From assembly GCA_043822175.1 (NCBI GenBank), contig JBDRBZ010000123.1, positions 1 to 39,224 on the forward strand: a stretch of DNA of 39,224 nucleotides, in the 5' to 3' direction. Below the pieces are notes generated by a model, which was not told the DNA's origin, made no database searches, and worked only from the letters and a program-made list of their open reading frames with translations. Below are positions 1-35,198 of the stretch, one piece after another; position 1 is the first letter of the stretch, and each line of letters starts with the position of its first letter. Source of the stretch: Candidatus Omnitrophota bacterium (GTDB lineage: Bacteria > Omnitrophota > Gorgyraeia > JABMRN01). Position numbers and translations under genes: made by a program.

Positions 1-3000
1 TTAATTCCCGGACTTGTGCTTGGATCTGTTATAAGTATCGTCCTTTTCATGCTGGATCATTGGACATACTGCCGCAAGCTGGTTAAGGATATATACAGAG
101 AAAGGATAATCCAGGATTATACCGTAAGAGGAGATCTCTGGGGCTTCTTCGCTGTTCAGGTCGTTATGCGGTTAGGGAATATCCTTATGTTGTATCATCC
201 CGGAGCGGGGTGGTGTTTTAACTGCATAAACTGTTTGATAATCGGTATTACACTTATTGTTGCACATGGCATTGTCCTCAACGCTACAATGCTGCCCGTT
301 CTTAAGGGAGCGCTCATGATGGTCCCGTCGAGGAGAGACGAGAACACGCGTCTCATGGGGTCGCTGATGGGGATAAGGCGCGATATGCTGTTTGAGAATA
401 CCCGTGAAGCGCGGGACGAGCGGGCGTTAGACGCGAAATATCAGGAGCTTTTAGCGGTTTTATCAGAGATCGAGAAACATGACGATCCTGAATTAATAAC
501 GTGGCTGATATACGCCCTTGAACGGCATAATAAGAATATCGACAAATGGCTGTCGAACGTGTGGAATACCAGTACGGAGCGGGCGCAAAAAGTCCACAAT
601 AAGGACATCGCTTTATCCGATAAAATAACGCGTGTATTAGTCAAACTCTGCAATAATCACAGGAAGGAATACGAAGAAAAATATCAGAATGAAATTCTGA
701 ATGCCTTGAACTGGCCACGGCAAAGCGCGTATGTGATGCAATGCATGCTGGAAGTCCTTCAGGGCACAGGTGTTAGTTTGGACATAGCGACGCTGAACCG
801 GTATCGCGCAAGACTGTGGAAGTCAGCAAGGCATCCTATGCCTTATTTCTCGGGCATACTCCTGGATGACGGGACCGAGGTAAGGGATGCCAGGGCAGTA
901 TTTGGGCACGCGATATCTTTGATGACACAGTACGCTCAGCAGGCGCAACAGCCGGGCGCTCCCATGGATGATGACACATCACAGGCGGCCGAGATAATTA
1001 CCAATGCCGGAGGCCTTTCCCACGTTACCGCAATGTGGTCGATGTTAGAGGAAGAAGAAAAGCGGTTAGCCGCGACTCTGGCACAGTATAGGCCGGCGCT
1101 GATTTTAAGGCAGCCTCAGGATGTCAAGCCGGAGCCGGCGCAACCCGCGCCTGTACAGGCCGCCGCGCCGCCGGAAACACAGACAGCGGCTGAAGCGCCT
1201 AAAGACGACGAAGAAAACCGGTGGTCGATCAGCGCCGAAGGCGCGCGAAATATCGAAAATGGCTCTCAGCTGGTCTTTGGCATGGGCGGCAAGCGAAAAA
1301 TAACGTTTTATGGCCTGCCCGAAGGTACTCAATACGTGACATTTGGTAATGCCATCGCGCTTTATAATCCACGGACAGACCAACACCTGTGTTTTATCGT
1401 TAAAGGCGCTTCAGAGAAGGCCTTTAGGGTCATGTGCTTTCAGGTCGCGCGGGGCCGGCAGCATTCGGACCGTCTTTATGCGCGGGGACGCGTCTGGCCC
1501 AATGAATTAATAACAGACAGGCCTGAGGCGGAAGGCGCGGCATATAGCGTGTCTACTTGGAACAGGCCGTACGCGCTGGATTTGTCCGTTTACAGGGGCC
1601 GAATCCCGGTCATCGGCGCGTTTCTTGAGGAAGCGACAGGTGGTGCGCAACCCTTTAACGACGTGCTGTCTCGCGTGAAAATCGACAAGTATACGAGCTG
1701 CCTGGCGGGCCTCGGCATTCCGCCGGTATTAATAAACGGGTTCAGGACGATATTATCCGAAGAGAGAGGACTTATCAAACTTGATCCGGGTTCAGGAGGA
1801 TTGTCGGCCGATAAGAATCTGACCGGCCTGGTCGACCGGCTGGAACGCGTATTTGGTTTGCGGCCCACTTTTGAGCGCAGCTATGACCATGAACTCCTGC
1901 ATATAGCCGTGAGAGACTCGGGGTTTGTGGGAGAATTTACCCGGCGGCTGGAACAGGTAAAGCCGCGTGAAAAGGGAAGGTTTTTCGAGGCCTTTGACAA
2001 GGCCTTTGCCATGTCCGGAGGCATGAATCTCGACAGGTACATTTCCGCACCTGAAAACAAGGCCGCGTTTTATGAAGAAATAGGCGTGAAATACCTTTCA
2101 GCGATTCATGAAGGCGATTTTGCTGATAATCCCGGCGCGCACAACTATATATATTCTAAAACCATAAAGGGCGTCCTGGACCGTCTTATGGCGGAATTAA
2201 AATATAATGGTATGCCGCTTATTCAACTGGCGGAATCAGACAGCGTGGCGCTGAGGCGGACAATGCGCCCTCTGCCGTCCGACACAGGCCTGGATGTTAA
2301 TTTTGAGGAGAATCCAGCGTACATTCAAATTCTGAGAAAACTGGACCGGTATCTCCCGGCGCCAGCAGGAGAACCGTACGACATGGGATCGAATTTCGCG
2401 AGAAATATAGGGCACGCGAGGAGGACGATCAGGGAAATAGCGTCGTCAATACCTTTAATCGGCCGCTCACGGACCGTGACCGCGGCGTTGGGGTATATTT
2501 TAGGAGCCGTTTTCATTCTCGCTATAATCCGCGCGGCCTACCCGTATTTTTCGGTTGTGTTTATTCACCATCTTTTTATTACGGATGCGTCTTTTTGCTT
2601 TGCGGCTTATACGCTGGCCATCGCATTCTATCCTTTTTACAGAATGAAATCGCTCGAAGGGATCAAGGGGAAAGTCTTCACGAGAAACATTGAAGCCGGC
2701 CTGCAGAAAGCAGGAGAAAGCCCGAGGATATTCGACTGGAGCCGCGCGTGGACGACCGTAAAAGCCATGTTTTTTTCAGAGGTACTGATCCTTATATGCC
2801 TGATGCTTTGCCTCAAGTTCCTGCCGGGATATTGGTTTTTCCCGTCAGACCCGGTACGGCCGCTGGTAACCTTCAGGCTTATAAACTGGCTCGGGCCCAT
2901 CGTTTACTATGTGGACACGTTTGCCAGCAGCATGCTGATGGCGCCGCTCATCGAGGAGATCGTCTACAGGGTTGTTTTGTTCGGCGGATTGATGCGCCTG

Positions 3001-5178
3001 GCCGGGATGGTGTTTCGCGGTAAAGACAGGGCTTTTATCCCGGCGGCTGTAATATCGGCCGCGCTTTTCTCATACGCCCATATGAGCGGAGCGGCGCCGC
3101 TTTTCTTTATAAAAACATTTATAGGCGGCATGATATACGCTTACCTTTACTTTCGCACCGGCAAGGTAATAGTGCCTGTGATAGCTCACGGATTCTCTAA
3201 TTTTTACAGTCAATTTATGGAACTGGCGTTCGCGTTGCGCCTCATGAACGAAACCGGCCTTATACTTATCGGCATTAGCCTGGTAATCGTGCCGGCGTTG
3301 TTCAGGAAGCTTGCGCGTAAAAGAACGCCGCGCCCCTGCCCGGCGTCAGGCGCGCCGGGTATTTCCCATAAAGAGTTCAATGAAAAACTCGCGAAAATGC
3401 TGTCCGCTAAAACAGGAACGACTGTCTTTACCGCCAATTGTGGTGTTTCACCAAATAACACCGATGGCCGGGGCGAAAACAAATATTCGGTCATAACGAG
3501 TATTATGCATGAGGGGCTTCCTGTTTTTACACAGGTTCCGCTCATAAAATATGGTGTACATAAGCCCGAAGCCAGCATCCCATTAGATATCGGTGGATAT
3601 GCGGCAGGCCCGGCTGCCGGGATTCCGATTCTTAACGAGCTGAAGGAAGGCAATGTCCCTTCCGGGATAGAAATCGTGCTCATAAAAAGCCACCCCGGTA
3701 ACAGAAGCGCGCTTTACTGGAACAGGAAAAAAGGCAAGGATTGCGTGGTCCAGGTAGCGCACGCGGGTAAGGGCATCGAATCAGACCCGAACAGGGAAAA
3801 CAGGATGGTGATATACCTTGACCAGGATTTTGTCGAAGACCATCTAAGAAGCCGGAAGGTCTTGACAGAGCTTATCGCCGAAGAAATTGCCGAGGAGCTT
3901 GCCCGCAGGAATGGATTTGATTCGAGGTTTGTGCATAATCATCTTGTGCGTTCGGGGCAGGTAAAAAGATTCTATTCAGAATATAGGAAATACTACGAAG
4001 CCATTCTCGGCACAAGGCCCAATTTTCTCCATGACACGGCCGGATACACCAGGCGGGAGGACCAGAATGTGGCGAGCGGCAAAGGCGGTAGCGGCCAAAA
4101 CGCGATAGGAGACGGATTCTTACGGTTTGATGGACAGTTCGGCAGAAAAACGATACATTCCTCGGAAATCGCCAAATTTTTAAAAGAATGGCAGGCATAT
4201 TTGGCAGACAAAGGAATTAAAGGCATAGTCCTGTTGCTGCGCTTGGCAGTGACAGAGTTTGATCAAGAAAGCGGCATATTAACAGTTGGCGTGATAAACA
4301 ATAACCCCCAAAGTATCTGCGACAGGCTAGTTACAGAATTGGGAAATTTAGGTTATGCAGCGAAAGATATGAAGGCCTGGAATGAGACTGAAGAAAGGCA
4401 GCGGCGGGCGAAAGATACTGTCCGGCAGCGCCAGGCCGTCCCAAAAAGAACTACGGCAAACGAAATGGTTTCTGTCACAGGAAAAGGGGAAGGGATTATC
4501 ATCCCGATGAGCCATGGCGAATATGAGGAGCACCCGGCTGTGCGGATAGCGCGGGATTTTGCTGATGACGGGCAACTGGCGCAGTCTGTCAGGGAGTCGC
4601 TCGTCTCGAAGGCGCTCACCACGAAAAACCTTGTGCTTGCCTTTGACCTGGCTACGGGGGCAGGAAACGCCGGAAGCCCCGTAGCCGTTATCGAGAGGGC
4701 GCTGGAAGACCTTAAAAAAGAGCCGTTGTATGAAAAGCTCCTCAAAAACGTGATTATCAAAAAATCGGTCTCAGCCAATATGGCCAGGACCCTGGAAAGC
4801 TATTTAGGCGCCGATAATACGGAAATATTTATCTTCGCGCCCGAATCAAACCGGCAAACGCTTCAGACGTTGGAATCCGCTCGCGGCGTGCGAAACGTTT
4901 ATATCGATGAAGGAAAAAAGCCGGGCGAACGGTTTCCCATAAACGCCTATTACCCGCTCGTCGAAGTAGTCGCGATTACCCTGGCAAACGCGCTCGGCAA
5001 TGTGGATTTTGAGTATCTCGCGGAAAACAGCGATGTAAAGGCGCTTAATCTACGGTCGATACCCGAGGTGGCAGGTACGGCGCTTATATTCAGGTTACTG
5101 CCCGGGGCGAAAGAATTTGACAAACAAAGCCTTATCCGGTACCAGGCCAGCCTGCGCCGCCTTCTCATAGCCGCGTAA
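1..5178 (+). CDS. Giant (>=1720 aa) multi-domain membrane protein with an embedded CPBP/Abi-type intramembrane protease core; probably 5'-truncated by the window edge
   Basis: Frame 1 is uninterrupted from nt 1 to the TAA at 5176-5178. The track gives 16..5178; the first candidate start is GTG16, with no Shine-Dalgarno in the 15 nt upstream, so the start is probably outside the window. A hydrophobic multi-pass block at nt ~2490-3300 carries the three CPBP motifs in order: EEIVYR (2953-2970), FSYAH (3067-3081) and HGFSN (3187-3201). There is a separate HELLH (HExxH) at 1888-1902 and a Pro/Ala-rich linker at ~1111-1215. I do not recognise the remaining ~1400 aa. Confidence 0.75.
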   Translation, partial: LIPGLVLGSVISIVLFMLDHWTYCRKLVKDIYRERIIQDYTVRGDLWGFFAVQVVMRLGNILMLYHPGAGWCFNCINCLIIGITLIVAHGIVLNATMLPVLKGALMMVPSRRDENTRLMGSLMGIRRDMLFENTREARDERALDAKYQELLAVLSEIEKHDDPELITWLIYALERHNKNIDKWLSNVWNTSTERAQKVHNKDIALSDKITRVLVKLCNNHRKEYEEKYQNEILNALNWPRQSAYVMQCMLEVLQGTGVSLDIATLNRYRARLWKSARHPMPYFSGILLDDGTEVRDARAVFGHAISLMTQYAQQAQQPGAPMDDDTSQAAEIITNAGGLSHVTAMWSMLEEEEKRLAATLAQYRPALILRQPQDVKPEPAQPAPVQAAAPPETQTAAEAPKDDEENRWSISAEGARNIENGSQLVFGMGGKRKITFYGLPEGTQYVTFGNAIALYNPRTDQHLCFIVKGASEKAFRVMCFQVARGRQHSDRLYARGRVWPNELITDRPEAEGAAYSVSTWNRPYALDLSVYRGRIPVIGAFLEEATGGAQPFNDVLSRVKIDKYTSCLAGLGIPPVLINGFRTILSEERGLIKLDPGSGGLSADKNLTGLVDRLERVFGLRPTFERSYDHELLHIAVRDSGFVGEFTRRLEQVKPREKGRFFEAFDKAFAMSGGMNLDRYISAPENKAAFYEEIGVKYLSAIHEGDFADNPGAHNYIYSKTIKGVLDRLMAELKYNGMPLIQLAESDSVALRRTMRPLPSDTGLDVNFEENPAYIQILRKLDRYLPAPAGEPYDMGSNFARNIGHARRTIREIASSIPLIGRSRTVTAALGYILGAVFILAIIRAAYPYFSVVFIHHLFITDASFCFAAYTLAIAFYPFYRMKSLEGIKGKVFTRNIEAGLQKAGESPRIFDWSRAWTTVKAMFFSEVLILICLMLCLKFLPGYWFFPSDPVRPLVTFRLINWLGPIVYYVDTFASSMLMAPLIEEIVYRVVLFGGLMRLAGMVFRGKDRAFIPAAVISAALFSYAHMSGAAPLFFIKTFIGGMIYAYLYFRTGKVIVPVIAHGFSNFYSQFMELAFALRLMNETGLILIGISLVIVPALFRKLARKRTPRPCPASGAPGISHKEFNEKLAKMLSAKTGTTVFTANCGVSPNNTDGRGENKYSVITSIMHEGLPVFTQVPLIKYGVHKPEASIPLDIGGYAAGPAAGIPILNELKEGNVPSGIEIVLIKSHPGNRSALYWNRKKGKDCVVQVAHAGKGIESDPNRENRMVIYLDQDFVEDHLRSRKVLTELIAEEIAEELARRNGFDSRFVHNHLVRSGQVKRFYSEYRKYYEAILGTRPNFLHDTAGYTRREDQNVASGKGGSGQNAIGDGFLRFDGQFGRKTIHSSEIAKFLKEWQAYLADKGIKGIVLLLRLAVTEFDQESGILTVGVINNNPQSICDRLVTELGNLGYAAKDMKAWNETEERQRRAKDTVRQRQAVPKRTTANEMVSVTGKGEGIIIPMSHGEYEEHPAVRIARDFADDGQLAQSVRESLVSKALTTKNLVLAFDLATGAGNAGSPVAVIERALEDLKKEPLYEKLLKNVIIKKSVSANMARTLESYLGADNTEIFIFAPESNRQTLQTLESARGVRNVYIDEGKKPGERFPINAYYPLVEVVAITLANALGNVDFEYLAENSDVKALNLRSIPEVAGTALIFRLLPGAKEFDKQSLIRYQASLRRLLIAA

Positions 5179-7734: not shown

Positions 7735-9637
<1,903 letters not shown>

Positions 9638-9688
9638 GGCCGGCAGAGGGATCCCGGTTCCCGGCGGACATTTAAGAGGAGGGCGGTT

Positions 9689-9949
9689 GTGAACAGGCGC
9701 AAACTCATCCGGTACGGCCTTGTCCTTCTCATGCTGGCAGTTATCTATTTTCCCGGTTTCTCCAGGCTCCAGCAGCTGAAAGAGGAAAACAGGGCGCTTG
9801 AGCGAAAGATAGAGGAGCTTAAGGGCTCAAACACGCTTCTGATAGAGACAATACGCAGGCTGGAGACAGACCCCGTCTATGTCGAAAAGGTGGCCAGGGA
9901 AAAGATGAAGAAGACACGCCAGGGCGAGATTATATATAAAACCGATTAA
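9689..9949 (+). CDS. ftsB: Septum formation initiator (FtsB/DivIC family)
   Basis: 86 aa with a GTG start after AAGAGGAGGG. It has one N-terminal TM helix followed by a coiled coil (LQQLKEENRALERKIEELK). Its position directly downstream of eno is a common conserved arrangement. Confidence 0.7.
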   Translation: MNRRKLIRYGLVLLMLAVIYFPGFSRLQQLKEENRALERKIEELKGSNTLLIETIRRLETDPVYVEKVAREKMKKTRQGEIIYKTD

Positions 9950-9952
9950 TGC

Positions 9953-9981
9953 TTGCGCAGCCGGGGCGGATTTGTTATAAT
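9953..9981 (+). promoter_or_regulatory. Candidate promoter of the initiator tRNA gene
   Basis: TTGCGC (9953-9958), a 17-nt spacer, then TATAAT (9976-9981) preceded by TGt (extended -10). It is about 20 nt upstream of the mature tRNA 5' end. Confidence 0.55.
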
Positions 9982-10000
9982 AGGCGCTCGTCTACACAAT

Positions 10001-10077
<77 letters not shown>

Positions 10078-10143
10078 AATTTGTCCTGAGGCAATGCCCA
10101 ATGCCGAAAGGCCTGATCCCTTCTTATTCTTAAAAGATAAATA

Positions 10144-10171
10144 TTGAAACTATGCCCGCGTGTGATATATT
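10144..10171 (+). promoter_or_regulatory. Candidate promoter for gmd-fcl
   Basis: TTGAAA (10144-10149), a 16-nt spacer, then TATATT (10166-10171) preceded by TGa. Consensus matching only. Confidence 0.35.
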
Positions 10172-10243
10172 AGAAAACTGAACATACGAAAGAGGTCAAT
10201 AAGGCGCGGTCTTTTTAACGCGCGGTTGAAAGGAGCCCGGGAT

Positions 10244-12727
<2,484 letters not shown>

Positions 12728-24536: not shown

Positions 24537-26090
24537 ATGCGGGAAGGCGTTATCAAAATATGCGTTTTCTTGTGCGCGTTTTTTCCGTGTTTTAACGGTC
24601 CCGGAACATTGTGCCGGGCTCTGGAATTTCACGAAGCCGCGGCCGCGGCTGGCGATTCTGTCAAGGTTTCCCAAAAAGAAACAGAAGAGGAGCGTTTTGC
24701 CGACTGCCTTGCCCATTACACGATGGGCCTTATTTACGACAACCAGAGGGACACACACAAAGCGATAGCCGAATATAAAAAGGCGCTTCGCTGTAACGGA
24801 TGGAACTCCTACGTAAGGCTGAGGCTGGGCATAGATTATCTCGGGACCGGAAAAACGCGCCAGGCAATCCGGCAGTTTGAGCGCGTGAAAAAACTGGATC
24901 CTGACAACGCGGCGCCGTATCTCATCCTGGCCGTTGTGTATATGTCGGAAAAAAAGCATGACATGGCCAGAAAAGAATATGAAAGCGTCATAAAAAAAGA
25001 CCCCGGCAACGCGAAGGCGCTTTTTTCTCTCGCAGACCTCATGGTGATGCAGAGAAAATACAAAGAGGCGGTAGGGGTATACGAAAAAATAATCGCCTCT
25101 GAACCCGATTCGCCGCTCGGGCATTTCAACCTCGGTGTCGTATATACCAGGCTGAACCGGGTTGATGACGCTATAGCGCAAATACGCAAAGTGACCGAGC
25201 TCGAGCCCCGGTATCTTGAGGCGTATATCACACTGGGGCTGCTTTATGAGATTAAGGGGGATACCGAAAACTCTGAGCAGGCGTATCTGTCCGCGCTGAA
25301 AATCGATGCGCTCAATGCGGCTGTCTATAACCGCCTCGCTCAGCTTTATTACGGCGCGGGACAAACCGAAAAGGCAGTTTCCATTTACAGGAAGCTGGTG
25401 CACCTGTACCCCGGCGAACTGGAGAACTATATTCTACTCTATATGGCATACATGAAAGAAGGCCAGAGCGGTCCGGCGATAGATGTTTTGCGTAAAGCCG
25501 AAAACAGGGGATTCCAGGGGGTTAAGCTTAACAGAATGCTGGGGTACGCTTACATGATTTCCGGCGACAACGATGAAGCTGCCGCGTATTTGGGCAAGGT
25601 GCTTGCCGTAAATCCGGAAGACGCGTGGAGTTATTTTTATCTCGGCGTGATTTACGACAGGAAGGGCGACAGGGCAAATGCCGCGGGCGCGTTCCGGAAA
25701 GCGATCGGTTATGACGGGACGATGCACGAGGCGTACAATTATCTGGCGTACATGTATGCCGAGGAAGGCGCCAATCTGGATGATGCCGAAGATCTGGCAG
25801 TTAAGGCCCTTAAAATGGATCCGGGCAATGCCGCTTATCTTGACAGCCTGGGATGGATATACTACAAAAAGGGCGATATGGAGGGCGCGGTGAGAGAGCT
25901 GGAACAGTCCGTAGCCCGCGAAGGGGAGGATCCGGTAATAAGGGATCACATGGGCGATGTATACCATGCCCTGGGCATGGATGACACAGCCCGCGTCCAA
26001 TGGGAAAAATCACTTGAGCTTAAACCCGGACAGGATGAGATAAGAAACAAAATAAACGCTTTAAGCGACGTTCTGGAGAAAGCTGAATAG
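24537..26090 (+). CDS. Secreted or periplasmic tetratricopeptide-repeat (TPR) protein
   Basis: 517 aa with a hydrophobic N-terminal signal-like segment. This is followed by about 12 tandem 34-aa TPR-like units (recurring A..Y..AL...P....A...LG pattern). Confidence 0.8.
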   Translation: MREGVIKICVFLCAFFPCFNGPGTLCRALEFHEAAAAAGDSVKVSQKETEEERFADCLAHYTMGLIYDNQRDTHKAIAEYKKALRCNGWNSYVRLRLGIDYLGTGKTRQAIRQFERVKKLDPDNAAPYLILAVVYMSEKKHDMARKEYESVIKKDPGNAKALFSLADLMVMQRKYKEAVGVYEKIIASEPDSPLGHFNLGVVYTRLNRVDDAIAQIRKVTELEPRYLEAYITLGLLYEIKGDTENSEQAYLSALKIDALNAAVYNRLAQLYYGAGQTEKAVSIYRKLVHLYPGELENYILLYMAYMKEGQSGPAIDVLRKAENRGFQGVKLNRMLGYAYMISGDNDEAAAYLGKVLAVNPEDAWSYFYLGVIYDRKGDRANAAGAFRKAIGYDGTMHEAYNYLAYMYAEEGANLDDAEDLAVKALKMDPGNAAYLDSLGWIYYKKGDMEGAVRELEQSVAREGEDPVIRDHMGDVYHALGMDDTARVQWEKSLELKPGQDEIRNKINALSDVLEKAE

Positions 26091-26121
26091 CAGGCAAAAA
26101 ACGGAAGGAGCTGCACAAGAC

Positions 26122-26970
26122 ATGAGAGAAGACGCGACCGCACCCGATATCGGCACGCTGAAAAAAAAGGCCGTAGAAATACGGAAAGATATACTGAAAA
26201 TGCTTTACACGGCCGGGAGCGGCCACCCCGGAGGATCACTGTCGCTGGTGGAAATACTCGCGGCGCTCTATTATTGCGAGATGCGGTACGATCCGAAAAG
26301 GCCGGCCTGGAGGGAAAGGGATAAGCTGCTTTTGTCCAAAGGCCATGGATGCCCGGCTTTGTACGCCGTGCTGGCGGACAGAGGGTTTTTCCCGAGGCAG
26401 GAACTCTGGACATTGAGAAAACTCGGTACCCGGCTTCAGGGGCACCCCCAGCTGGGGCTTCCCGGGCTTGAGATATCGAGTGGTTCGCTCGGACAGGGGC
26501 TTTCCATCGCGAACGGCATGGCCCTGGCAGACAGGATGGACAACGTGAAAGCGCGAGTTTACTGCATAATGGGTGACGGCGAGACTAATGAAGGGCAGGT
26601 ATGGGAGGCGGCCATGACGGCCAGCCATTATAAATTGGATAATTTATGCGCGATTATAGACCATAATAAGATGCAGATCGACGGGTTCTGCTGCGAGGTG
26701 AAAGATATGACGAATTTCTGCAGCAAATGGTCAAGCTTCGGATGGCATGTAATCGAGGCGGACGGCCATGATTTCAGCCAGCTTATGGACGCGTTTGACA
26801 GGGCAAGGCAGGTCAAGGGCAAGCCGCAGGTGATAATGGCGCATACAATAAAGGGCGCGGGTGTTTCGTTCATGGAGAACAAGGTGAAATGGCACGGTGT
26901 CGCGCCGAAGAAAGACGAGTATGAGGCGGCGATCAAAGAACTGGACGGCGCCCGCTCCAAGCTTGGGTAA
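26122..26970 (+). CDS. Transketolase, N-terminal (TPP-binding) subunit
   Basis: 282 aa. Shows GSGHPGGSLS, SKGH..PALYA and GDGE.NEGQVWEA. It stops where split transketolases stop. Confidence 0.92.
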   Translation: MREDATAPDIGTLKKKAVEIRKDILKMLYTAGSGHPGGSLSLVEILAALYYCEMRYDPKRPAWRERDKLLLSKGHGCPALYAVLADRGFFPRQELWTLRKLGTRLQGHPQLGLPGLEISSGSLGQGLSIANGMALADRMDNVKARVYCIMGDGETNEGQVWEAAMTASHYKLDNLCAIIDHNKMQIDGFCCEVKDMTNFCSKWSSFGWHVIEADGHDFSQLMDAFDRARQVKGKPQVIMAHTIKGAGVSFMENKVKWHGVAPKKDEYEAAIKELDGARSKLG

Positions 26971-27012
26971 AAGCGAAGACGCGGGGCAGGACATAAAAAG
27001 GAGGCCACAACA

Positions 27013-28623
27013 ATGAGAAGATTTATGATGTATCTCAAGATGTACAAGATGATGATTATCGTCGCGGCGGTTGTCATCATCCTGCTCATAGGCACGGTTA
27101 TAGGGCTGATGTCTCTTGAGTCTTTTTACAGGAAGCTTACACTGGCCACGATGCCGCTTCAATTCCTGATGGCGGGTATACATGCCGGCATATTTGTCTT
27201 TATGTATCTTATTTTTCTCAGAGGGGGCTTTGCCAAGCTCGACAAGGCGCCCATAAGGGGAAAGGATATCGAAATCAGATGGAAGGACGTGATCGGCATG
27301 GACGACGCCAAGCAGGAGGCCTGGGAAGTGGTGCAGCTTATACGCGACAGGGCGCGGCTAATGGCGGTCGGCGGCAAGGTCATAAAAGGCCTGCTCATGG
27401 TCGGGCCTCCGGGATGCGGCAAGACATATCTGGCAAAGGCCATTGCCACGGAGGCGCGGCTGCCTTTCATATCGATGTCGGGAAGTGAATTTACGGAAAT
27501 ATTCGTCGGTGTGGGCGCGTCGCGGGTGAGGAAACTCTTCCAGAAAGCGCGCGATTACGCGTACGGATACGGCGGATGCATCATATTCATAGACGAACTT
27601 GATGCCATAGGGCGCGTGAGGCAGCTTTCCTGGGGCGGCGGCGGCCAGGAGACGAACGCCACGCAGAACCAGCTCCTTGTCGAGCTGGACGGTTTGAGGG
27701 AAAAGGGAGGCAATATAGTGGTCATAGGCGCGACAAACGCGCCCGAAGACAGCCTCGACAAGGCGCTTTTACGGCCCGGCAGATTTGACAGAAAGATATA
27801 CGTCAACTTCCCGGGGCTCGAGGACAGAGAAAAAATCTTCGCGTATTACCTGAGCAAAGTTCAGACGGATGACAGCATAGATGTGGGGCGCCTGGCCAGG
27901 AGGACTGTCAATAAATCACCGGCCGATATCGCCAACGCGGTCATGGAAGGCGCGCTGATCGCGACACGGAAAAAGAATGACAAGGTGAGCATGAAAGAGC
28001 TGAGCGAGGCATTCGAACGGATAGACCTCGGCATAAAACACAAGATCAGCATGACAAAAGAAGAAAAAGAGATGACGGCGTATCATGAATCCGGGCATCT
28101 TATCGTGACATATCTGCTGCACCCCACGGACGATGTGTTTAAGGCTTCGATTATACCGCGGGGTTCGGCTCTGGGGTATGTATATCCTACGCCCAAGGAA
28201 GAATCCCATTCCGCTAAAAAAGATAAAATACTGGCCGACATTAAAGTCGGCGTAAGCGGGTATGTGGCCGAAAAGCTTGTGTATAACACATCGACTGCGG
28301 GCGTGTCCAAAGATTTCAGTATGGCCATGGAAAAGGCGCATGTTATGGTTTGGTGCCTGGGCATGGGCGAATCCGGATACGTGGGCGATTACACGAGAAT
28401 ACCGAGCGAACAGCTTTCGGACGACATCAAACAGGCATTGAATAAAGACACGGGAAAGATACTCTCGGACTGCGTGTCCGATGTCGACGCGTTGCTCAAA
28501 GCGGAAAGGCCGCTCCTCGACCGGTTCGCGCAGGAGCTCCTCACGAAAGAGGAGCTGGAATATGACGAGATAGAGGCTATTTTCAAAGAATACAATAAGA
28601 CAAAACGTCCGTTTTCGACATAA
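27013..28623 (+). CDS. FtsH-family AAA+ zinc metalloprotease paralogue with a minimal extracytoplasmic loop
   Basis: 536 aa. Has Walker A GPPGCGKT (27403-27426), Walker B IIFIDELDA, the SRH/Arg finger LLRPGRFDR, and HESGH (28084-28098). The two N-terminal TM helices are separated by only ~11 aa (ESFYRKLTLAT). Confidence 0.85.
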   Translation: MRRFMMYLKMYKMMIIVAAVVIILLIGTVIGLMSLESFYRKLTLATMPLQFLMAGIHAGIFVFMYLIFLRGGFAKLDKAPIRGKDIEIRWKDVIGMDDAKQEAWEVVQLIRDRARLMAVGGKVIKGLLMVGPPGCGKTYLAKAIATEARLPFISMSGSEFTEIFVGVGASRVRKLFQKARDYAYGYGGCIIFIDELDAIGRVRQLSWGGGGQETNATQNQLLVELDGLREKGGNIVVIGATNAPEDSLDKALLRPGRFDRKIYVNFPGLEDREKIFAYYLSKVQTDDSIDVGRLARRTVNKSPADIANAVMEGALIATRKKNDKVSMKELSEAFERIDLGIKHKISMTKEEKEMTAYHESGHLIVTYLLHPTDDVFKASIIPRGSALGYVYPTPKEESHSAKKDKILADIKVGVSGYVAEKLVYNTSTAGVSKDFSMAMEKAHVMVWCLGMGESGYVGDYTRIPSEQLSDDIKQALNKDTGKILSDCVSDVDALLKAERPLLDRFAQELLTKEELEYDEIEAIFKEYNKTKRPFST

Positions 28624-28624
28624 G

Positions 28625-29614
28625 ATGAGAAATATTTTTCGCCTTTCGATTATCCTGATGTTGATTTTCGCCCTGGCAGGATGCAAGGCCACATTTCCTA
28701 AAGAGACCCTGGCCCAATCCATAGCCGCGTTGTGCCTGGAAGAGTATGGCCTGGAAATAAAGGCCGAGGTTATCGGCCAGACGCTGGCGGTTTACCTGCC
28801 TCTTAAGAGCCTGCTCGATCTATCCTTCGGCCTGAGCGAGGAGGCGCAGGATGCCATTCAGGATGTGCTCCTGTCGGCATCCCGGGTTGTCTTGAGTACG
28901 GACGCGGATATCCGATTTTATTGCGTGATAGCCCAGGATATAAGGCTGCCCGAACTGCAGGTTATAGTCATAAAATCGGTCGAAGACGTGAAGCGGGCGT
29001 ACTTTAACGACATATCGCGCGGCGAATACCTGAAAAGGACGATATTCGATATCAACATCAATCCCCAGTCAAGGAAAGAGCAGACCATAAAGGACGTGTT
29101 TAAGAAGTATAAACTGGATCCTGAGTGGCAGGACCAGATTCTCGAGGAGTTTTTCAGGAATACCCCCCTCGCGCTTAAGGATTTCGGCTACTGGAACGAC
29201 AGGTTCTACGTAAAGAATATCACCCTTCCCGAATTCATAGCAGAGCAGATAGTTTACAGGATAAGGATGCATTTTCGCGAGAACAAGGAGCTGGCCAGGA
29301 AGTACGTCGTAAAAGCGGTTAACGCGAGGTATGAGGAAGAAGGCAACGCGCGGCAGTTCCGCGTGGATTTTGACATCAAGCTGAACGAAGTGCTGAAGGT
29401 CCTCGGGGAGGCCGGCGGCGACGATGGAGTTATCTTCGGGAACGTGATGGAGGAAATAGCGGACTGCGTGTACGGGTATAAATTTGAGGACTTTGATTCG
29501 GTGAAATGCGTCGATGCCGCGAGCGGCAAAAAACTCACCGTCTCCAAGAATGAGATATACGCGCTTAAGAAAAGAAAGATAAACATGGATAACGTCCTGG
29601 CCGGTTTAAGCTGA
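28625..29614 (+). CDS. Orphan lipoprotein
   Basis: 329 aa. The signal peptide has the lipobox LAGC (28673-28684, Cys20). The ATG lies 1 nt after the FtsH-like stop. I recognise no family. Confidence 0.7.
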   Translation: MRNIFRLSIILMLIFALAGCKATFPKETLAQSIAALCLEEYGLEIKAEVIGQTLAVYLPLKSLLDLSFGLSEEAQDAIQDVLLSASRVVLSTDADIRFYCVIAQDIRLPELQVIVIKSVEDVKRAYFNDISRGEYLKRTIFDININPQSRKEQTIKDVFKKYKLDPEWQDQILEEFFRNTPLALKDFGYWNDRFYVKNITLPEFIAEQIVYRIRMHFRENKELARKYVVKAVNARYEEEGNARQFRVDFDIKLNEVLKVLGEAGGDDGVIFGNVMEEIADCVYGYKFEDFDSVKCVDAASGKKLTVSKNEIYALKKRKINMDNVLAGLS

Positions 29615-29646
29615 TCCGGGACCGCGGTAAAAGGAGAAAAGACAGC

Positions 29647-30657
29647 ATGACAGTAAGAAAGCTTGAGAAGAATGAGGCAAAACAGCAGGCGCTCCCTACA
29701 AGGGACGGTTTCGGGAAAGGGCTCCTGGAGCTCGGGGCAAAAGACAAAAACGTGGTGGTCCTTTCGGCTGACCTTACCGATTCGACGCGCGCGGCCTGGT
29801 TCAGGGACGCGTATCCGGACAGATTCCTCGGCTTCGGCGTAGCCGAGCAGGATATGTTCGGCGCGGCCGCGGGCCTGGCGCTGCTCGGGAAAATACCGTT
29901 CGCGTGCACGTTCGGCGTTTTCGCCAGCGGAAGGGCGTGGGATCAGATCAGGATCTCATTGGCATACATGAATTTAAATGTGAAAATCGGCGGCACGCAC
30001 GGCGGTATTTCCGTCGGCCCTGACGGCGCGACCCACCAGGCGCTTGAGGAGATCACCCTTATGCGCATGCTGCCCAACATGACGATCGTCGTGCCCTGTG
30101 ACGCGGTCGCGGCGAAAAAGGCAACGCTGGCCGCTGCGGCGTTAAAGGGGCCGGTGTACATAAGATTGGGGCGAAGCGCCGTGCCGGTCATAACCCGGGA
30201 AAACGATTTTTTTAAAATCGGGAAAGCCAACGTTCTCAACAAAGGGGATGACATAACCGTCTTCGCGTGCGGGCAGGTGGTATATGAGGCGCTCGCGGCC
30301 GCGAAAATTCTCAAAAAAGAGGGAATTGAAGCGAGGGTGATCAACCTTCATACGCCGAAGCCGATTGACAGAAGCGCCATTATCAAAGCGGCGCGCGAGA
30401 CAGGCGCCATAGTCACGGTAGAGGAGCACACGCTTTACGGCGGGTTCGGCAGCGCCATAGCCGAGGTCGTGATAGAGAAATGCCCGGTTATAATGAAGAT
30501 GATAGGGGTGAAAGATACTTTCGGAGAATCAGGCGAACCCGAAGAACTGTTCGAGCACTTCGGCCTTACGGCCAAACATATTGTGCAGGCTGCCCGGCAG
30601 GCCATTAAAGAGAAAAGGCCGCGCTTGCCGGAGAGGCCGCGAAAGAAAAGAAAATGA
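29647..30657 (+). CDS. Transketolase, C-terminal (pyrimidine-binding) subunit
   Basis: 336 aa. Shows FGVAEQDM.GAAAGLA and GGTH.G.S.G.DG.THQ. Confidence 0.92.
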   Translation: MTVRKLEKNEAKQQALPTRDGFGKGLLELGAKDKNVVVLSADLTDSTRAAWFRDAYPDRFLGFGVAEQDMFGAAAGLALLGKIPFACTFGVFASGRAWDQIRISLAYMNLNVKIGGTHGGISVGPDGATHQALEEITLMRMLPNMTIVVPCDAVAAKKATLAAAALKGPVYIRLGRSAVPVITRENDFFKIGKANVLNKGDDITVFACGQVVYEALAAAKILKKEGIEARVINLHTPKPIDRSAIIKAARETGAIVTVEEHTLYGGFGSAIAEVVIEKCPVIMKMIGVKDTFGESGEPEELFEHFGLTAKHIVQAARQAIKEKRPRLPERPRKKRK

Positions 30658-31535
30658 AATCCCTCACATTATGGGCGCCGGCTAAGGTTAATCTGTACCT
30701 GAGGGTGAAGAGAAAGCGGCCGGACGGGTACCACGACATAGAGACGCTCTTTGAAAGAATAAATATAAAGGACCGGATAACCGTTTCCGTGACAAAAGGG
30801 CGGATGACCGTGACAACATCGGGCATCCCTGTCCCGGCCGGCAGAAAAAACATCTGCTATAAGGCCGCGGCGCTTTTAAAAAAGGGATACGGCGTCAAAT
30901 CGCGGGTCAAAATACATATTGAGAAGCGAATACCGGTTGCGGCCGGTCTTGGCGGCGGCTCGAGCGACGCGGCGGGTGTTTTAAAGGCGCTTAACAGGCT
31001 GTGGAAGCTGTCTATCGGGGAGGACGCCATGATGCGCATCGCGGCCCGCGTAGGGGCTGACGTACCCTTTTTCATTAAAGATGTCTCTTTTGCGCGGGGT
31101 TCGGGTATCGGTGACAGGCTGATTCCCGTAAAATCCAGAACAGTGATCTGGCATCTGGTTGTAACCCCGCCTATCAGGACGCTATCAGGTACAATATATA
31201 AGATGTATGATAAGAAGGGGTGTTTGCCCTTGACAAGGCCGGGGGGTACTGATAAAATGAAAACCCCCAAAAATCTTATAAGCAACAGGGGACAGCTCAG
31301 TTCATTCCTTTGCAATGATTTGGAGGAGACCGCAGTCAATATGTGTCCGCTGATAGGGCGCATAAAGGCGGAAATGTTAAGCGCGGGGGCGTTAGGCGCC
31401 CTTGTTTCGGGCAGCGGCCCCAGCGTATTCGCTGTATATCGGACACGAAAGGAGGCACTGAAGGGGAAGCGTTTATGTATGGAGCGCCTTCCAGCGGACA
31501 ACGGATGGCGCGTGTTCGTGGCGAGAACATTCTGA
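30654..31535 (+). CDS. ispE: 4-diphosphocytidyl-2-C-methyl-D-erythritol kinase
   Basis: 293 aa. Shows APAKVNLYLRV and the GHMP-kinase motif PVAAGLGGGSSDAA. There is an ATGA overlap with the upstream gene. Confidence 0.92.
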   Translation: MKSLTLWAPAKVNLYLRVKRKRPDGYHDIETLFERINIKDRITVSVTKGRMTVTTSGIPVPAGRKNICYKAAALLKKGYGVKSRVKIHIEKRIPVAAGLGGGSSDAAGVLKALNRLWKLSIGEDAMMRIAARVGADVPFFIKDVSFARGSGIGDRLIPVKSRTVIWHLVVTPPIRTLSGTIYKMYDKKGCLPLTRPGGTDKMKTPKNLISNRGQLSSFLCNDLEETAVNMCPLIGRIKAEMLSAGALGALVSGSGPSVFAVYRTRKEALKGKRLCMERLPADNGWRVFVARTF

Positions 31536-31557
31536 GATCGAGAAAGGAGAATGAAGC

Positions 31558-32022
31558 ATGGAGATCACCGAAGTACGTGTTTTTCTGAAGGAGGGGCCGG
31601 ATAAGAAGCTTAAGGCTTATGCGACGCTGACATTCGACAATTGTTTTGTGGTAAGGAATGTAAAGGTTATTCAGGGCACGAAGGGGCTTTTTGTGGCGAT
31701 GCCTTCGAGAAAAATCAGGGAGGCGTGCCCGAAGTGCCATTATAAAAATACGGCGAGAAGCAGATATTGCAGTCAATGCGGATCGGCCCTTCCGCAGCAG
31801 CCGCAGCAGCAGAATGCGGCCGTGGCGAGGCAGGCCGAACATAGGGATATCGCGCATCCCATAACACTTGAGTGCAGGGAGATGATTCAGAGAAAGGTGC
31901 TTGAGGCTTATGATGCCGAGGCGGCGAAAGAGCCGAAGGCAAGGGCGCGGTTTGAGGATGAGGACAGCCCGGTTGCGGAAGAGAACTTCGACGAGATAGA
32001 AGGCAGGGATATAGCGCTGTAA
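31558..32022 (+). CDS. spoVG: SpoVG-family protein with an inserted zinc ribbon and an acidic C-terminal extension
   Basis: The SpoVG core is present: MEITEVRVFL...LKAYATLTFDNCFVVRNVKVIQGTKGLFVAMPSRK and RDIAHPIT..REMIQ. CPKC (31726-31737) and CSQC (31768-31779) lie in the loop between FVAMPS and RDIAHP. The protein is 154 aa, against about 95 aa for the canonical form. Confidence 0.85.
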   Translation: MEITEVRVFLKEGPDKKLKAYATLTFDNCFVVRNVKVIQGTKGLFVAMPSRKIREACPKCHYKNTARSRYCSQCGSALPQQPQQQNAAVARQAEHRDIAHPITLECREMIQRKVLEAYDAEAAKEPKARARFEDEDSPVAEENFDEIEGRDIAL

Positions 32023-32031
32023 AGACGCCGT

Positions 32032-32105
32032 TGCCCGGTAGTGTAACGGTAGCACAGCAGCTTTTGGAGCTGCGCGTCCTGGTTCGAATCCAGGCTGGGC
32101 AACCA
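32032..32105 (+). tRNA. tRNA-Gln (anticodon TTG)
   Basis: 74-nt cloverleaf folded by hand: acceptor TGCCCGG/CTGGGCA (U1-A72), D arm GTGT/GCAC, anticodon arm GCAGC-TTTTGGA-GCTGC (anticodon 32064-32066), T arm CCTGG-TTCGAAT-CCAGG, with an encoded CCA. Confidence 0.92.
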
Positions 32106-32231
32106 AATTTTGCGAAGAAAAATTTGTCCTGGGGGCATGAATATAGCGAAGCAAAATTTGAAAAACGTGAAAAATAGAAATTTGAAAATAGACCGAAATT
32201 GATTCTCAGTAGTTATTGAATTTTAGGGCAT

Positions 32232-33512
32232 ATGAAAAAAAACATCGCATGTCTTATTCTGGCGGCGGGAAGGGGGACGAGGATGAAGTCCTCTCTGCCG
32301 AAGCCGCTTCATGAGATCCATTCCAGACCCATGCTGGGGTATCTCATTGATACGGTGCGGGCGCTTGGAATAAAAAGGATCGGGCTCGTGTTCGGGCATG
32401 AGGCCGGGAAGCTCAGGCGCGTTTTTAAGGGGTTTGACGTGGTCCTGCAGCGGAGGCCCCTGGGCAGCGGCGATGCCATAAGGTGCGCAAAGGCTTATTT
32501 CCGCGCCTATTCCGGTGATATACTGCTGCTTTATTCGGATACGCCGCTTCTTAAGGCAGAAACATTGAAGGCCCTGATTGAGACGCACGCGAAAAACGGC
32601 AACAAATGCACGCTTCTTACCGCGGTAATGAGCGATCCGAAAGGGTACGGCAGGATATTGCGGGATGATTCGGGCAGGGTAAAGAAAATAGTCGAGGAGA
32701 CGGACGCGGCGTTTTATGAACAGGCTATCCGGGAAATAAACGTGGGGGCTTATATGCTTGACAAAAAAACCCTTTTTGAAAATATAGACAGGATAAGGCC
32801 TAACAGGCGGAAAAAGGAGTTTTTTCTGACCGATATAATAGAGATATTCGGGAAGCAAAATCTCAAGATGGGTTTCCATACTACGGATGACCCTACGGAG
32901 GCGCAGGGCGTGAACTCCAGGGTAGATCTTGCACTGGCAAATGAAATAGCCGGGCGAAGGGTAACGGATGATCTCATGGCGCAAGGTGTAACCATAGAGG
33001 ACCCGTCCACGACCAGCGTGGACAAGGACGCTAAAGTCGGGCAGGATACGGTGATTTATCCGCATACTATCATCGAGAAAGACGTTGTCATAGGGCGCGA
33101 TTGCCGCATCGGCCCGTACGCCAGGTTAAGGCCCGGTACGGTCCTGGACGCTAAAGTCGAAGTGGGCAATTTTGTCGAGCTTGTCAGAACAAGGGTGGGC
33201 GCGGGGTGCAAGATAAAGCACATGACCTATCTCGGAGACGCGGTACTCGGGAAAGGCATCAACATAGGCGCGGGGACCATTACGGCTAATTATGACGGCA
33301 AGGATAAAAACAGGACTGAAATTGGGGATAACGCCTTTATCGGGGTCGGGGCTATACTTATAGCGCCGGTGAAAATAGGACGCGGCGCAGTCGTCGGGGC
33401 AGGCAGCGTGGTTACAAAGGGCCGGAATGTCCCGGCTGACGCCACGGTCCTGGGGGTGCCGGCAAAAATATACAAAAAGCGGACAAAAAATAAAAGCCGG
33501 AGGGAAAAATGA
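32232..33512 (+). CDS. glmU: Bifunctional UDP-N-acetylglucosamine pyrophosphorylase / GlcN-1-P acetyltransferase
   Basis: 426 aa. Shows LAAGRGTRMKS at the N-terminus and C-terminal left-handed beta-helix hexapeptide repeats. Confidence 0.9.
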   Translation: MKKNIACLILAAGRGTRMKSSLPKPLHEIHSRPMLGYLIDTVRALGIKRIGLVFGHEAGKLRRVFKGFDVVLQRRPLGSGDAIRCAKAYFRAYSGDILLLYSDTPLLKAETLKALIETHAKNGNKCTLLTAVMSDPKGYGRILRDDSGRVKKIVEETDAAFYEQAIREINVGAYMLDKKTLFENIDRIRPNRRKKEFFLTDIIEIFGKQNLKMGFHTTDDPTEAQGVNSRVDLALANEIAGRRVTDDLMAQGVTIEDPSTTSVDKDAKVGQDTVIYPHTIIEKDVVIGRDCRIGPYARLRPGTVLDAKVEVGNFVELVRTRVGAGCKIKHMTYLGDAVLGKGINIGAGTITANYDGKDKNRTEIGDNAFIGVGAILIAPVKIGRGAVVGAGSVVTKGRNVPADATVLGVPAKIYKKRTKNKSRREK

Positions 33513-34447
33513 CTGATAAACTAAAGATATTTACGGGCAGCTCGAACAGGCCTGTCGCCGAAGGTATATGCAGGACCTTGAGGATCAATATGGGCAGCGC
33601 CGATGTCGAGAGATTCAGTGACGGTGAAATACGCGTAAAGGTTAACGAGAATGTGAGGGGGGAAGACGTTTTTGTGGTGCAGTCTACCTCAAGCCCGGCG
33701 AACGACAACATCATGGAGCTCCTGATAATGATCGACGCGCTTAAGCGCGCGTCGGCGTCACGGATAACCGCGGTACTGCCTTATTTCGGGTACGCCAGGC
33801 AGGACAGGAAAGATCAGCCGAGGGTGCCCATTACGGCAAAACTTGTGGCCAATATCCTTACGCGGGCCGGGGCCAACAGGGTGCTTACCGTTGACCTGCA
33901 TGCGGGCCAGATACAGGGCTTTTTCGATATCCCCCTGGATCACCTCTACGCGGTAAACGTATTCGTGGAATATTTCGAGAAGATGAAAATGACCAATCTT
34001 ACCATCGTATCTCCGGATGTCGGGGGCATAAAAATGGCGCGTGCCTACGCCAAGAGGTTAAACGCCAACCTGGCCATAGTCGATAAGAGGCGGATAGACG
34101 ATAAAAAGACAGAGGTCATGAATATAATGGGTGAGGTTGAGGGACAGAACGTGGTGATAGTCGATGATATAGTGGCCACGGCCGGCAGCCTTATCGAAGC
34201 CGCCCAGGCAGTGAAAAACGCCGGCGCCCTTGACGTTTACGCGGCGATAACTCACCCTGTCTTAAGCGGGCCGGCCATAGAGAGGATACGCTACAGCGTC
34301 CTTAAGAAAATGCTGACCACGGATACGATAAAGATCGAGGAGTCAAAGGCGACCGAGAAAATAGAGGTAATATCCATTGTGCCCCTTCTGGCCGAGGCCA
34401 TAAGGAGGATACACAATGAGCAGTCTGTAAGCATGTTATTCGATTAA
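33509..34447 (+). CDS. prs: Ribose-phosphate pyrophosphokinase
   Basis: 312 aa. Shows LPYFGYARQDRK and the PRPP-binding loop VIVDDIVATAGS. There is an ATGA overlap with glmU. Confidence 0.96.
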   Translation: MTDKLKIFTGSSNRPVAEGICRTLRINMGSADVERFSDGEIRVKVNENVRGEDVFVVQSTSSPANDNIMELLIMIDALKRASASRITAVLPYFGYARQDRKDQPRVPITAKLVANILTRAGANRVLTVDLHAGQIQGFFDIPLDHLYAVNVFVEYFEKMKMTNLTIVSPDVGGIKMARAYAKRLNANLAIVDKRRIDDKKTEVMNIMGEVEGQNVVIVDDIVATAGSLIEAAQAVKNAGALDVYAAITHPVLSGPAIERIRYSVLKKMLTTDTIKIEESKATEKIEVISIVPLLAEAIRRIHNEQSVSMLFD

Positions 34448-34470
34448 ATCGCGAAACGGAGGTAATGATA

Positions 34471-35178
34471 ATGGAGAAGGTAATATTGACCGCGGAAGTG
34501 AGACAGGAAACCGGCAAATCACATGCCAAGCATCTCAGGCGGAACAATCTTGTGCCGGCAGTATGTTACAGGGGCGGCAAGGAGTGCGTGAGCCTTAAGG
34601 TGGGCGCAAAAGCCCTTTATCAGGCCCTGCATACGAAGGCCGGGGAAAACGTGCTGATCACGCTGAACGTGGAAGGGGCTAAGACAAAAAAGGAACGCAC
34701 TGTCCTGGTGAAGGAAGTGCAGGTAGACCCCATACGCGGGGATCTGCTGCACGTTGATTTTAACGAGATATCACTGACCGAAAAAATAAAGGTAAAAGTC
34801 CCTGTTACGACGCACGGCGAGGCAAAGGAAGTGCAGAGGGAAAGCGGGGTTGTCGAACACACTGTATGGGAGGTCGAGGTGGAATGCCTGCCGACCAACA
34901 TTCCGGAAAAAATACAGGTGGAGATCGAAGGCATGAAAATAGGCGACACTGTCCATATCGGCGATCTTAAAGCCCCTGAAGGGGTTAAAATTCTGGGAGA
35001 TCCGGAGCTTATCGTGCTGATTGCCAAGGCGTCAAAGGTAGAAGTCGTGGAGGAAGTGCCTGTGGAAGGTGAGGCCGAAGAGCCTGAAGTTATAGCCAAA
35101 GGCAAGAAGCCTGAAGAGGAAGGCGAGGAAGAAGACGCGGAAGCGGCGCCTCAGGAAAAGAAGGATAAAAAGGAATAG
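34471..35178 (+). CDS. rplY: 50S ribosomal protein L25 / general stress protein Ctc, with an acidic tail
   Basis: Shows EVRQETGKSHAKHLRRNNLVPAVCYG and a two-domain Ctc form. ATG 34471 lies 8 nt after GGAGG (34458-34462). The track's ATG 34465 is only 2 nt from the SD. Confidence 0.88.
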   Translation: MEKVILTAEVRQETGKSHAKHLRRNNLVPAVCYRGGKECVSLKVGAKALYQALHTKAGENVLITLNVEGAKTKKERTVLVKEVQVDPIRGDLLHVDFNEISLTEKIKVKVPVTTHGEAKEVQRESGVVEHTVWEVEVECLPTNIPEKIQVEIEGMKIGDTVHIGDLKAPEGVKILGDPELIVLIAKASKVEVVEEVPVEGEAEEPEVIAKGKKPEEEGEEEDAEAAPQEKKDKKE

Positions 35179-35198
35179 CTGTTTGTGCGGTATAACCG

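Follow-up and report, generated by a model that had tools for sequence, protein, structure and literature searches.

A CPBP-type intramembrane protease core within a mosaic membrane protein that probably belongs to the long multi-module proteins of Candidatus Omnitrophota

Introduction

Few known proteins are as large or as poorly understood as the long proteins of Candidatus Omnitrophota, whose sequence is mostly 'dark'. A class of long multi-enzyme proteins has already been described in this group, and embedded peptidase domains, namely C39 and S8, have been reported in such proteins (West-Roberts et al., 2023, 10.1101/2023.11.21.568195; Nielsen & Lui, 2026, 10.64898/2026.06.07.730766). Here we analyse a gene at nt 1–5178 on the plus strand of a 39,224-bp stretch of DNA (the window), which is an entire contig of a Candidatus Omnitrophota metagenome-assembled genome (MAG). 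Its product carries a core of the CPBP family of intramembrane proteases between two large flanks. An earlier note, made from the nucleotide sequence alone, had described it as a giant orphan membrane protein.

We consider it likely that this protein is a membrane-anchored mosaic and that it belongs, as a small or a truncated representative, to the lineage-specific and already known population of long multi-module Omnitrophota proteins. As read from its sequence, the order of modules is a transmembrane (TM) cluster, ∼ 700 soluble residues with a module that contains the motif HELLH, the CPBP core, a module designated F1, a short intervening piece and a C-terminal domain (CTD). Both F1 and the CTD are also present in Omnitrophota proteins that are otherwise built of cytoplasmic-type enzymes. 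The fusion of HELLH module, CPBP core and CTD is independently supported by a protein from a different assembly (P0038), which has all three in one frame. The embedded CPBP core appears to be new to the described class; the terms CPBP and CAAX are absent from both of the above papers.

Results

Homologues of the C flank

The C flank comprises F1, the middle region and the CTD (aa ∼ 1111–1725), in keeping with the ∼ 620 aa of soluble sequence that the earlier note had placed after the core. An exhaustive HMMER search of 1.84 billion cluster representatives with aa 1105–1725 as the query returned 213 proteins at E ≤ 1e-3 and 140 at E ≤ 1e-10, most of them through the CTD, so that the protein is not the orphan it had been taken for. 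Local phmmer scans of the best 150 of these 213 relatives with the full-length query resolved three common units; CPBP is found in just two of these 150.

The word-indexed protein search gave a very different picture. With the whole protein it returned a single full-length match, the NCBI record of the identical contig; with the 621-aa C flank it returned nothing, not even the protein itself; and with a profile of 40 CTD sequences it found two proteins, as against 213 by exhaustive HMMER. Word-indexed negatives are unreliable for domains that lie inside long proteins, and the absence of hits from word-indexed and curated-library searches had strongly exaggerated the orphan status of this protein. 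Outside the CPBP core there was no match in Pfam, NCBIfam, PHROGs, PADLOC or the PDB sequences (the latter were searched with both flanks and with the CPBP block). Locus scans with the whole protein and with the alignment of the HELLH module led to no confirmed relatives in GTDB genomes or JGI metagenomes; each used 2–6 short peptide patterns and is a weak negative.

The CTD was matched in 145 of the best 150 relatives, proteins of 121–6938 aa, and was terminal in all 145. In 135 of them the chain ends precisely at the residue that corresponds to the last one of our protein, and in another eight it extends one residue further. The tail of our protein is LIAA (aa 1722–1725, nt 5164–5175); the general pattern is [LIV]-x-[AS]-[AV], with AA in 58 of 112 sequences and Ala as the final residue in ∼ 85%. 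A carboxy-terminal Ala-Ala is the type of signal that is recognised by the ssrA/ClpX system and by tail-specific proteases. By analogy, the CTD tail may resemble such signals, which is only a lead.

An AlphaFold2 (AF2) model of the CTD, built from a 40-sequence alignment (A1) with a mean column identity of 37%, has a mean predicted local distance difference test (pLDDT) score of 91.3 and a predicted TM-score (pTM) of 0.89. Helices flank a parallel beta-sheet in this model, which also has a beta-hairpin and ends in a long helix. The CTD has no match in Pfam, its profile found nothing significant among the PDB sequences, and its fold found nothing in the PDB and BFVD at E ≤ 1e-3, the best hits being generic (CDC45/DHH, SIS and Rossmann-like) with TM-scores of at most 0.37. 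No constant distance from the last hydrophobic helix to the CTD was found. In the two papers on Omnitrophota proteins (10.1101/2023.11.21.568195, 10.64898/2026.06.07.730766), a search for wording on C-terminal domains turned up no shared domain of this kind. The CTD seems to define the family without having been described before, and it is the most novel element of the protein.

The window carries a single CTD. A 14.9-kb metagenome contig (L004) carries two genes that end in a CTD, at positions 1–1980 and 9481–12021, which shows that paralogues of the family coexist within genomes. At another locus (L003, positions 25597–35318), a 5105-aa CTD protein is directly followed by a gene for a protein of at least 4767 aa with PALP, HAD, helicase and HD domains. 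From the arrangements at these two loci, tandem long mosaic genes are possible.

F1 is 46–52% identical to internal segments of five Omnitrophota proteins of 0.7–4.4 thousand residues (kaa), namely P0002 (3573 aa), P0003 (4353 aa), P0004 (4048 aa), P0005 (2754 aa) and P0006 (675 aa). The shared motifs are SGAPGI[ST]H, [IV][IV]QVAHAG[RK]G, Y[LM]DxxFVxxHL, EE[IM]AEE, RRN, VH[ND]xL and [QH]N[IV]ASG. F1 was modelled with pLDDT values of 70–89; it has no match in Pfam, and a Foldseek search of the PDB with the multi-domain model gave nothing at E < 1. With ∼ 255 aa and many invariant motifs that contain His, Asp or Glu, F1 may be an uncharacterised enzyme. Two other ideas about it were discarded. 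ASG occurs essentially in F1 alone and so does not mark linkers or cleavage sites between modules in general. The comparison of F1 with the HELLH module, from which it might have arisen by degeneration (HELLH against EEIAEE), gave an hhalign probability of 0.15%.

In two of the F1 carriers, a sub-threshold MraZ/AbrB-like match lies ∼ 8–120 aa after F1 (aa 1271–1310 of P0002 and aa 1955–1999 of P0005). The corresponding middle region of our protein, GFLRFDGQFGRKTIHSSEIAKFL, resembles this stretch by eye, yet Pfam gives no match, and we only tentatively take it for an AbrB/MraZ-type hairpin followed by a charged linker.

The ten relatives examined with Pfam combine scaffold domains and enzyme domains of cytoplasmic type in mosaic fashion. 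These include several S-adenosylmethionine (SAM) methyltransferases, a pyridoxal phosphate enzyme (PALP), GNAT, a HAD hydrolase, a nucleotidyltransferase and HD, as well as HEAT repeats, a low-molecular-weight phosphatase, a glucosamine-6-phosphate isomerase-like domain and HATPase_c. The repertoire matches the Pfam 'Module 1' of the multi-enzyme class (Nielsen & Lui, 2026, 10.64898/2026.06.07.730766) and overlaps the 'Archaeovorin' domain set (West-Roberts et al., 2023, 10.1101/2023.11.21.568195). All seven members with a named source, our protein included, come from Candidatus Omnitrophota. At the five loci of relatives that were compared, the genes lie amid housekeeping genes and no conserved neighbour gene was found.

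The CPBP core and membrane topology

The Rce1-like family PF02517 matches aa 974–1068 (nt 2920–3204) with E = 1.8e-16 and 60.7 bits, well above the gathering threshold of 22.4. The three CPBP motifs, which the earlier note had described as intact and correctly ordered, are EEIVYR (nt 2953–2970), FSYAH (nt 3067–3081) and HGFSN (nt 3187–3201), that is, EExxxR (E985-E986-R990), FxxxH (F1023-H1027) and HxxxN (H1063-N1067). Judged by sequence, the core is intact, with every catalytic motif residue present. By hydropathy and in a low-confidence model, which makes the boundaries approximate, the motifs lie on consecutive helices at aa 982–1004, 1013–1029, 1033–1053 and 1059–1084. P0038 retains the same motifs as EEIIYR, FAFDH and HGLTN.

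We compared the core with the characterised CPBP subfamilies, including MroQ, MrtC/P/X/Z, MrtJ, MrtS, PEP-CTERM CAAX and ABC-permease/CPBP. All 11 NCBIfam matches fell far below the equivalog cutoffs: the best, MroQ, reached 49.5 bits against 270, MrtJ 43.1 against 75 and PEP-CTERM CAAX 28.9 against 81. By these scores, the protein is a member of the CPBP family that lies outside every characterised subfamily. The core accounts for ∼ 6% of the visible protein, or ∼ 16% when the whole TM block is counted. The premise of the earlier note that CPBP proteins are always compact was too strong, as NCBIfam has a 636-position model for an 'ABC transporter permease/CPBP' fusion.

The N-terminal TM helices and the multi-pass block anticipated in that note were both recovered as hydrophobic helices, in aa 1–108 and aa 824–1104 (Table 1). 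The loops at aa 20–45 and aa 109–128 are rich in Lys and Arg (K/R). There are five and four K/R per 20 residues at the two ends of the 715-aa soluble region, seven in the loop at aa 876–912 and five right after the last helix. Because the juxtamembrane loops are rich in positive charges, the positive-inside rule puts both large flanks in the cytoplasm, where we infer them to be; this location fits the cofactor-dependent enzyme domains of the sister proteins.

Table 1. Features of the CPBP-containing gene and its product.
Feature	Position (nt)	Strand	Residues (aa)	Basis or remark
Whole open reading frame	1–5178	+		No stop before the 5' edge of the contig; TAA at 5176–5178
N-terminal hydrophobic cluster, ∼ 3 helices	1–324	+	1–108	Kyte-Doolittle
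Soluble, probably helical region	325–1110	+	109–370	Sub-threshold Pfam matches alone
Pro/Ala-rich linker	1111–1215	+	371–405	Translation
Region without family match	1216–1656	+	406–552	Pfam, local phmmer
HELLH module	1657–2469	+	553–823	phmmer match to P0038, alignment A2
CPBP intramembrane protease block, 8–9 helices	2470–3312	+	824–1104	Pfam, motifs, hydropathy
F1 module	3331–4095	+	∼ 1111–1365	HMMER/phmmer relatives P0002–P0006
Middle region, possible AbrB/MraZ-type hairpin, then charged linker	4096–4527	+	1366–1509	By appearance
CTD, alpha/beta, ∼ 210 aa	4528–5175	+	1510–1725	HMMER relatives, AF2 model

The N flank and the HELLH module

The first soluble region gave sub-threshold Pfam matches (HD-CE with E = 0.007, and NusB) and nothing in NCBIfam, and relatives of it were not found. 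The region between the linker and the HELLH module has no relatives by Pfam or by local phmmer of the proteins found via the C flank.

HELLH occupies aa 630–634 (nt 1888–1902); translation and a motif scan placed both it and the Pro/Ala-rich linker where the earlier note had seen them. From the composition of the protein, an HExxH motif would be expected by chance 0.04 times, which agrees with the estimate of well under once made there. The HELLH module and the CPBP core (aa 553–1084) are matched jointly, with a phmmer E value of 2.7e-71, in P0038 (MFH1791261.1), an N-terminally truncated fragment of 837 aa from another Omnitrophota MAG that is annotated as 'type II CAAX endopeptidase family protein, partial'. 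In this protein, HELLH, CPBP and its own CTD follow one another in a single frame.

P0038 is the sole homologue of the module and is 38% identical to it over its whole length (alignment A2). The blocks RSYDHELLH, AFYEEIGVKYLSA and EGDFAD are identical in the two proteins, the latter two being acidic and lying downstream of HELLH. FYEE (within AFYEEIG), 57 residues downstream of HELLH, is likewise conserved in this comparison of two sequences. The region matched no peptidase family in Pfam at E ≤ 10 or in NCBIfam at E ≤ 1. Its AF2 model, built from an alignment that did not include P0038, has pLDDT values of 36–66 and is all-helical, with no beta-sheet and with HELLH at the start of a six-residue helix.

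Genomic neighbourhood

The neighbouring genes, all on the plus strand, are of the housekeeping type: a carbamoyltransferase, purN, enolase, GDP-mannose dehydratase, purBCMDE, SHMT, HisG, DnaB and others. No bacteriocin, ABC exporter, defence or mobile-element genes were found near the gene on the contig, and PADLOC gave no match.

Two further observations concern the window itself. All supported genes and both tRNAs (Met at 10001–10077 and Gln at 32032–32105) are on the plus strand over the whole 39,224 nt, and the GC skew is positive in 39 of 39 one-kb bins, an unusually strict strand bias across 39 kb. An open reading frame at 27013–28623 encodes an FtsH-like AAA+/M41 protease of just 536 aa; its AAA domain begins at aa 127, and the usual N-terminal region with two TM helices and a periplasmic part looks shortened.

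Discussion

Alternative explanations

From nt 1 onward, frame 1 runs for 1725 codons before it meets its stop codon. This upholds the earlier statement that the frame is still open at the window edge and encodes at least 1720 aa, the length obtained from GTG at nt 16, the start in the list of open reading frames. The NCBI annotation (P0001) uses ATG at nt 49, which gives a protein of 1709 aa named 'CPBP family intramembrane glutamic endopeptidase'. One might suspect an assembly or frameshift artefact that has joined a CPBP protease to unrelated neighbours, as the contig comes from a short-read MAG and the junction between CPBP and F1 is known from this contig alone. We regard such an artefact as very improbable. 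By a codon usage trained on the 22 other genes of the contig, frame 1 was the best coding frame in 33 of 33 overlapping 300-nt windows, with no dip and no frame switch, and long direct or inverted repeats were looked for at the domain junctions and not seen. The uniform coding signal and the absence of junction repeats give no indication of a frameshift or of a chimera. In addition, the independent contig of P0038 has HELLH, CPBP and CTD contiguous, and an 85.9-kb contig (P0002/P0152) encodes a single polypeptide with F1 upstream of the CTD. The stretch at nt 1–5178 is thus a genuine Candidatus Omnitrophota gene, whose 5' end has been lost at the contig edge. How much has been lost bears on another alternative, in which the visible frame is the C-terminal tail of a truly giant protein of at least 10 kaa, its gene broken at the contig boundary. 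A core Shine-Dalgarno sequence is absent before both GTG16 and ATG49 and present at 16 of the 22 other genes of the contig; the first hydrophobic helix is interrupted by the contig edge in a Kyte-Doolittle scan; and in fragmented Omnitrophota MAGs long reading frames are reported to be systematically broken at contig ends (10.64898/2026.06.07.730766). For these three reasons the true start is probably off the contig, and the CTD is known to close proteins of up to 6938 aa. However, in a crude hydrophobicity scan, five of nine family members (P0002, P0003, P0004, P0018 and P0051) have a hydrophobic helix that begins within the first 20 residues. The helix at the edge could therefore be an N-terminal anchor with few codons missing, and the missing part may range from a few codons to many thousands. 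Moreover, apparently complete CTD proteins exist from ∼ 300 aa upward. On balance, a giant parent protein is conceivable but somewhat doubtful, and the word 'giant' in the earlier note was generous for the ∼ 1.7 kaa that are visible.

Two other alternatives concern function. In one, the HELLH module is a zinc metalloprotease (zincin) that acts with the CPBP core in a dual-protease machine for processing or signalling. The rarity of HExxH by chance, the full identity of RSYDHELLH within a module that is 38% identical in its lone homologue, the co-occurrence of HELLH and CPBP modules on two independent contigs and the acidic AFYEEIG, at a spacing that is compatible with the third ligand of gluzincins, all speak for it. 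Zincins, however, usually have a hydrophobic helix turn before HE, as in thermolysin-like active-site helices, whereas the residues here are the polar R-S-Y-D. In addition, no peptidase family matches even at E values of up to 10, the low-confidence model, although too poor to judge the fold, is all-helical there, with HELLH opening a helix of six residues, and with two sequences catalytic and structural conservation are inseparable. We therefore hold a second active protease to be unlikely. In the other alternative, the protein is an ordinary CPBP/Abi protease for bacteriocin immunity or abortive infection that has acquired chance extensions. Its membership of the CPBP family and a match of the core to a PHROG of unknown function would agree with this. 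The carbamoyltransferase, purN, enolase and pur genes around it, the failure to find bacteriocin, ABC exporter or defence genes, the negative PADLOC result and scores far under every NCBIfam equivalog cutoff make it very improbable. The suggestion of the earlier note that this is no standard immunity protease therefore stands as far as the context is concerned. A one-off new machine is not supported, given that F1 and CTD modules occur in > 200 clusters of long mosaic proteins.

Several points weigh against our preferred assignment to the long multi-module proteins, or limit it. The visible 1.7 kaa, even with the 5' end missing, are far below the thresholds of at least 10 kaa used in the 2026 preprint and at least 30 kaa (genes of > 90 kb) used in 2023; with a visible length under threshold, membership of the class rests on modules common with proteins of 0.7–7 kaa and not on size. 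The query of the exhaustive search was aa 1105–1725, so aa 1–552 were outside its reach. The CPBP block has eight or nine helices, and with nine the membrane would separate the two flanks. The domains of the giant proteins have mostly been predicted to be extracellular, although such predictions were noted to be unreliable (West-Roberts et al., 2023, 10.1101/2023.11.21.568195). Finally, the CTD is without a structural relative (best TM-score 0.37), and its function is a guess.

A possible mode of action

Because all catalytic motif residues are present, the CPBP core would be an active intramembrane endopeptidase of the glutamic type. It may cut a membrane-proximal peptide, while the cytoplasmic flanks would tether, select or regulate the substrate and would have no extracellular role. 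The CTD could serve as the common 'handle' of the family for assembly, localisation or turnover, read via its fixed Ala-rich C-terminus, rather than as a protease-specific catalytic partner. Whatever in this scheme goes beyond a 'CPBP-type intramembrane endopeptidase with cytoplasmic accessory modules' we infer.

A bolder version would have the CTD mark the long mosaic proteins of Omnitrophota for a common fate, either docking to a membrane-associated super-assembly or recognition by a protease or unfoldase through the strictly fixed, Ala-rich C-terminus (L-x-[AS]-A-COOH). The CPBP-bearing CTD proteins, that is, ours and P0038, would then process or anchor this class, possibly with the HELLH module as a metalloprotease. 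We offer this version as a long shot.

Implications

Part of the 'dark' sequence of Omnitrophota long proteins consists of recurrent, alignable modules. The CTD, which defines > 200 protein clusters, provides a handle to classify these proteins and to locate true 3' ends in fragmented MAGs, and also one for experiments on their assembly or turnover. Among CPBP proteases, the protein stands for a further architecture, with the intramembrane core set within a long multi-module cytoplasmic scaffold, beyond the contexts of immunity, quorum sensing and sorting.

Comparison with known systems

The likeness to zincin metallopeptidases consists of the HExxH motif and conserved acidic residues downstream of it, whereas the sequence matches no zincin family and the polar context before the motif is atypical. 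With the CPBP/CAAX family (PF02517, MEROPS M79; Rce1, MroQ and the myxosortases), the protein shares the three signature motifs on consecutive hydrophobic helices. It differs in that the context includes no bacteriocin, prenylation or C-terminal sorting tag and the core makes up a small share of the protein.

As in the MYXO-CTERM/myxosortase (PMC11980579) and PEP-CTERM CAAX systems, a CPBP protease is associated with a family that is defined by its conserved C-terminus. In those systems, however, the tags are short, with a motif, a TM helix and an Arg cluster in succession, and a small protein of its own acts as the protease, whereas our protein ends in a globular alpha/beta domain of 210 aa that has no TM helix.

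Compared with the long and giant multi-enzyme proteins of Omnitrophota, the embedded peptidase is of the CPBP type instead of C39 or S8. The phylum and the mosaic, TM-anchored build are the same, and F1 and the CTD occur in proteins of 0.7–7 kaa with methyltransferase, HATPase_c, GNAT, HAD, HD and HEAT domains.

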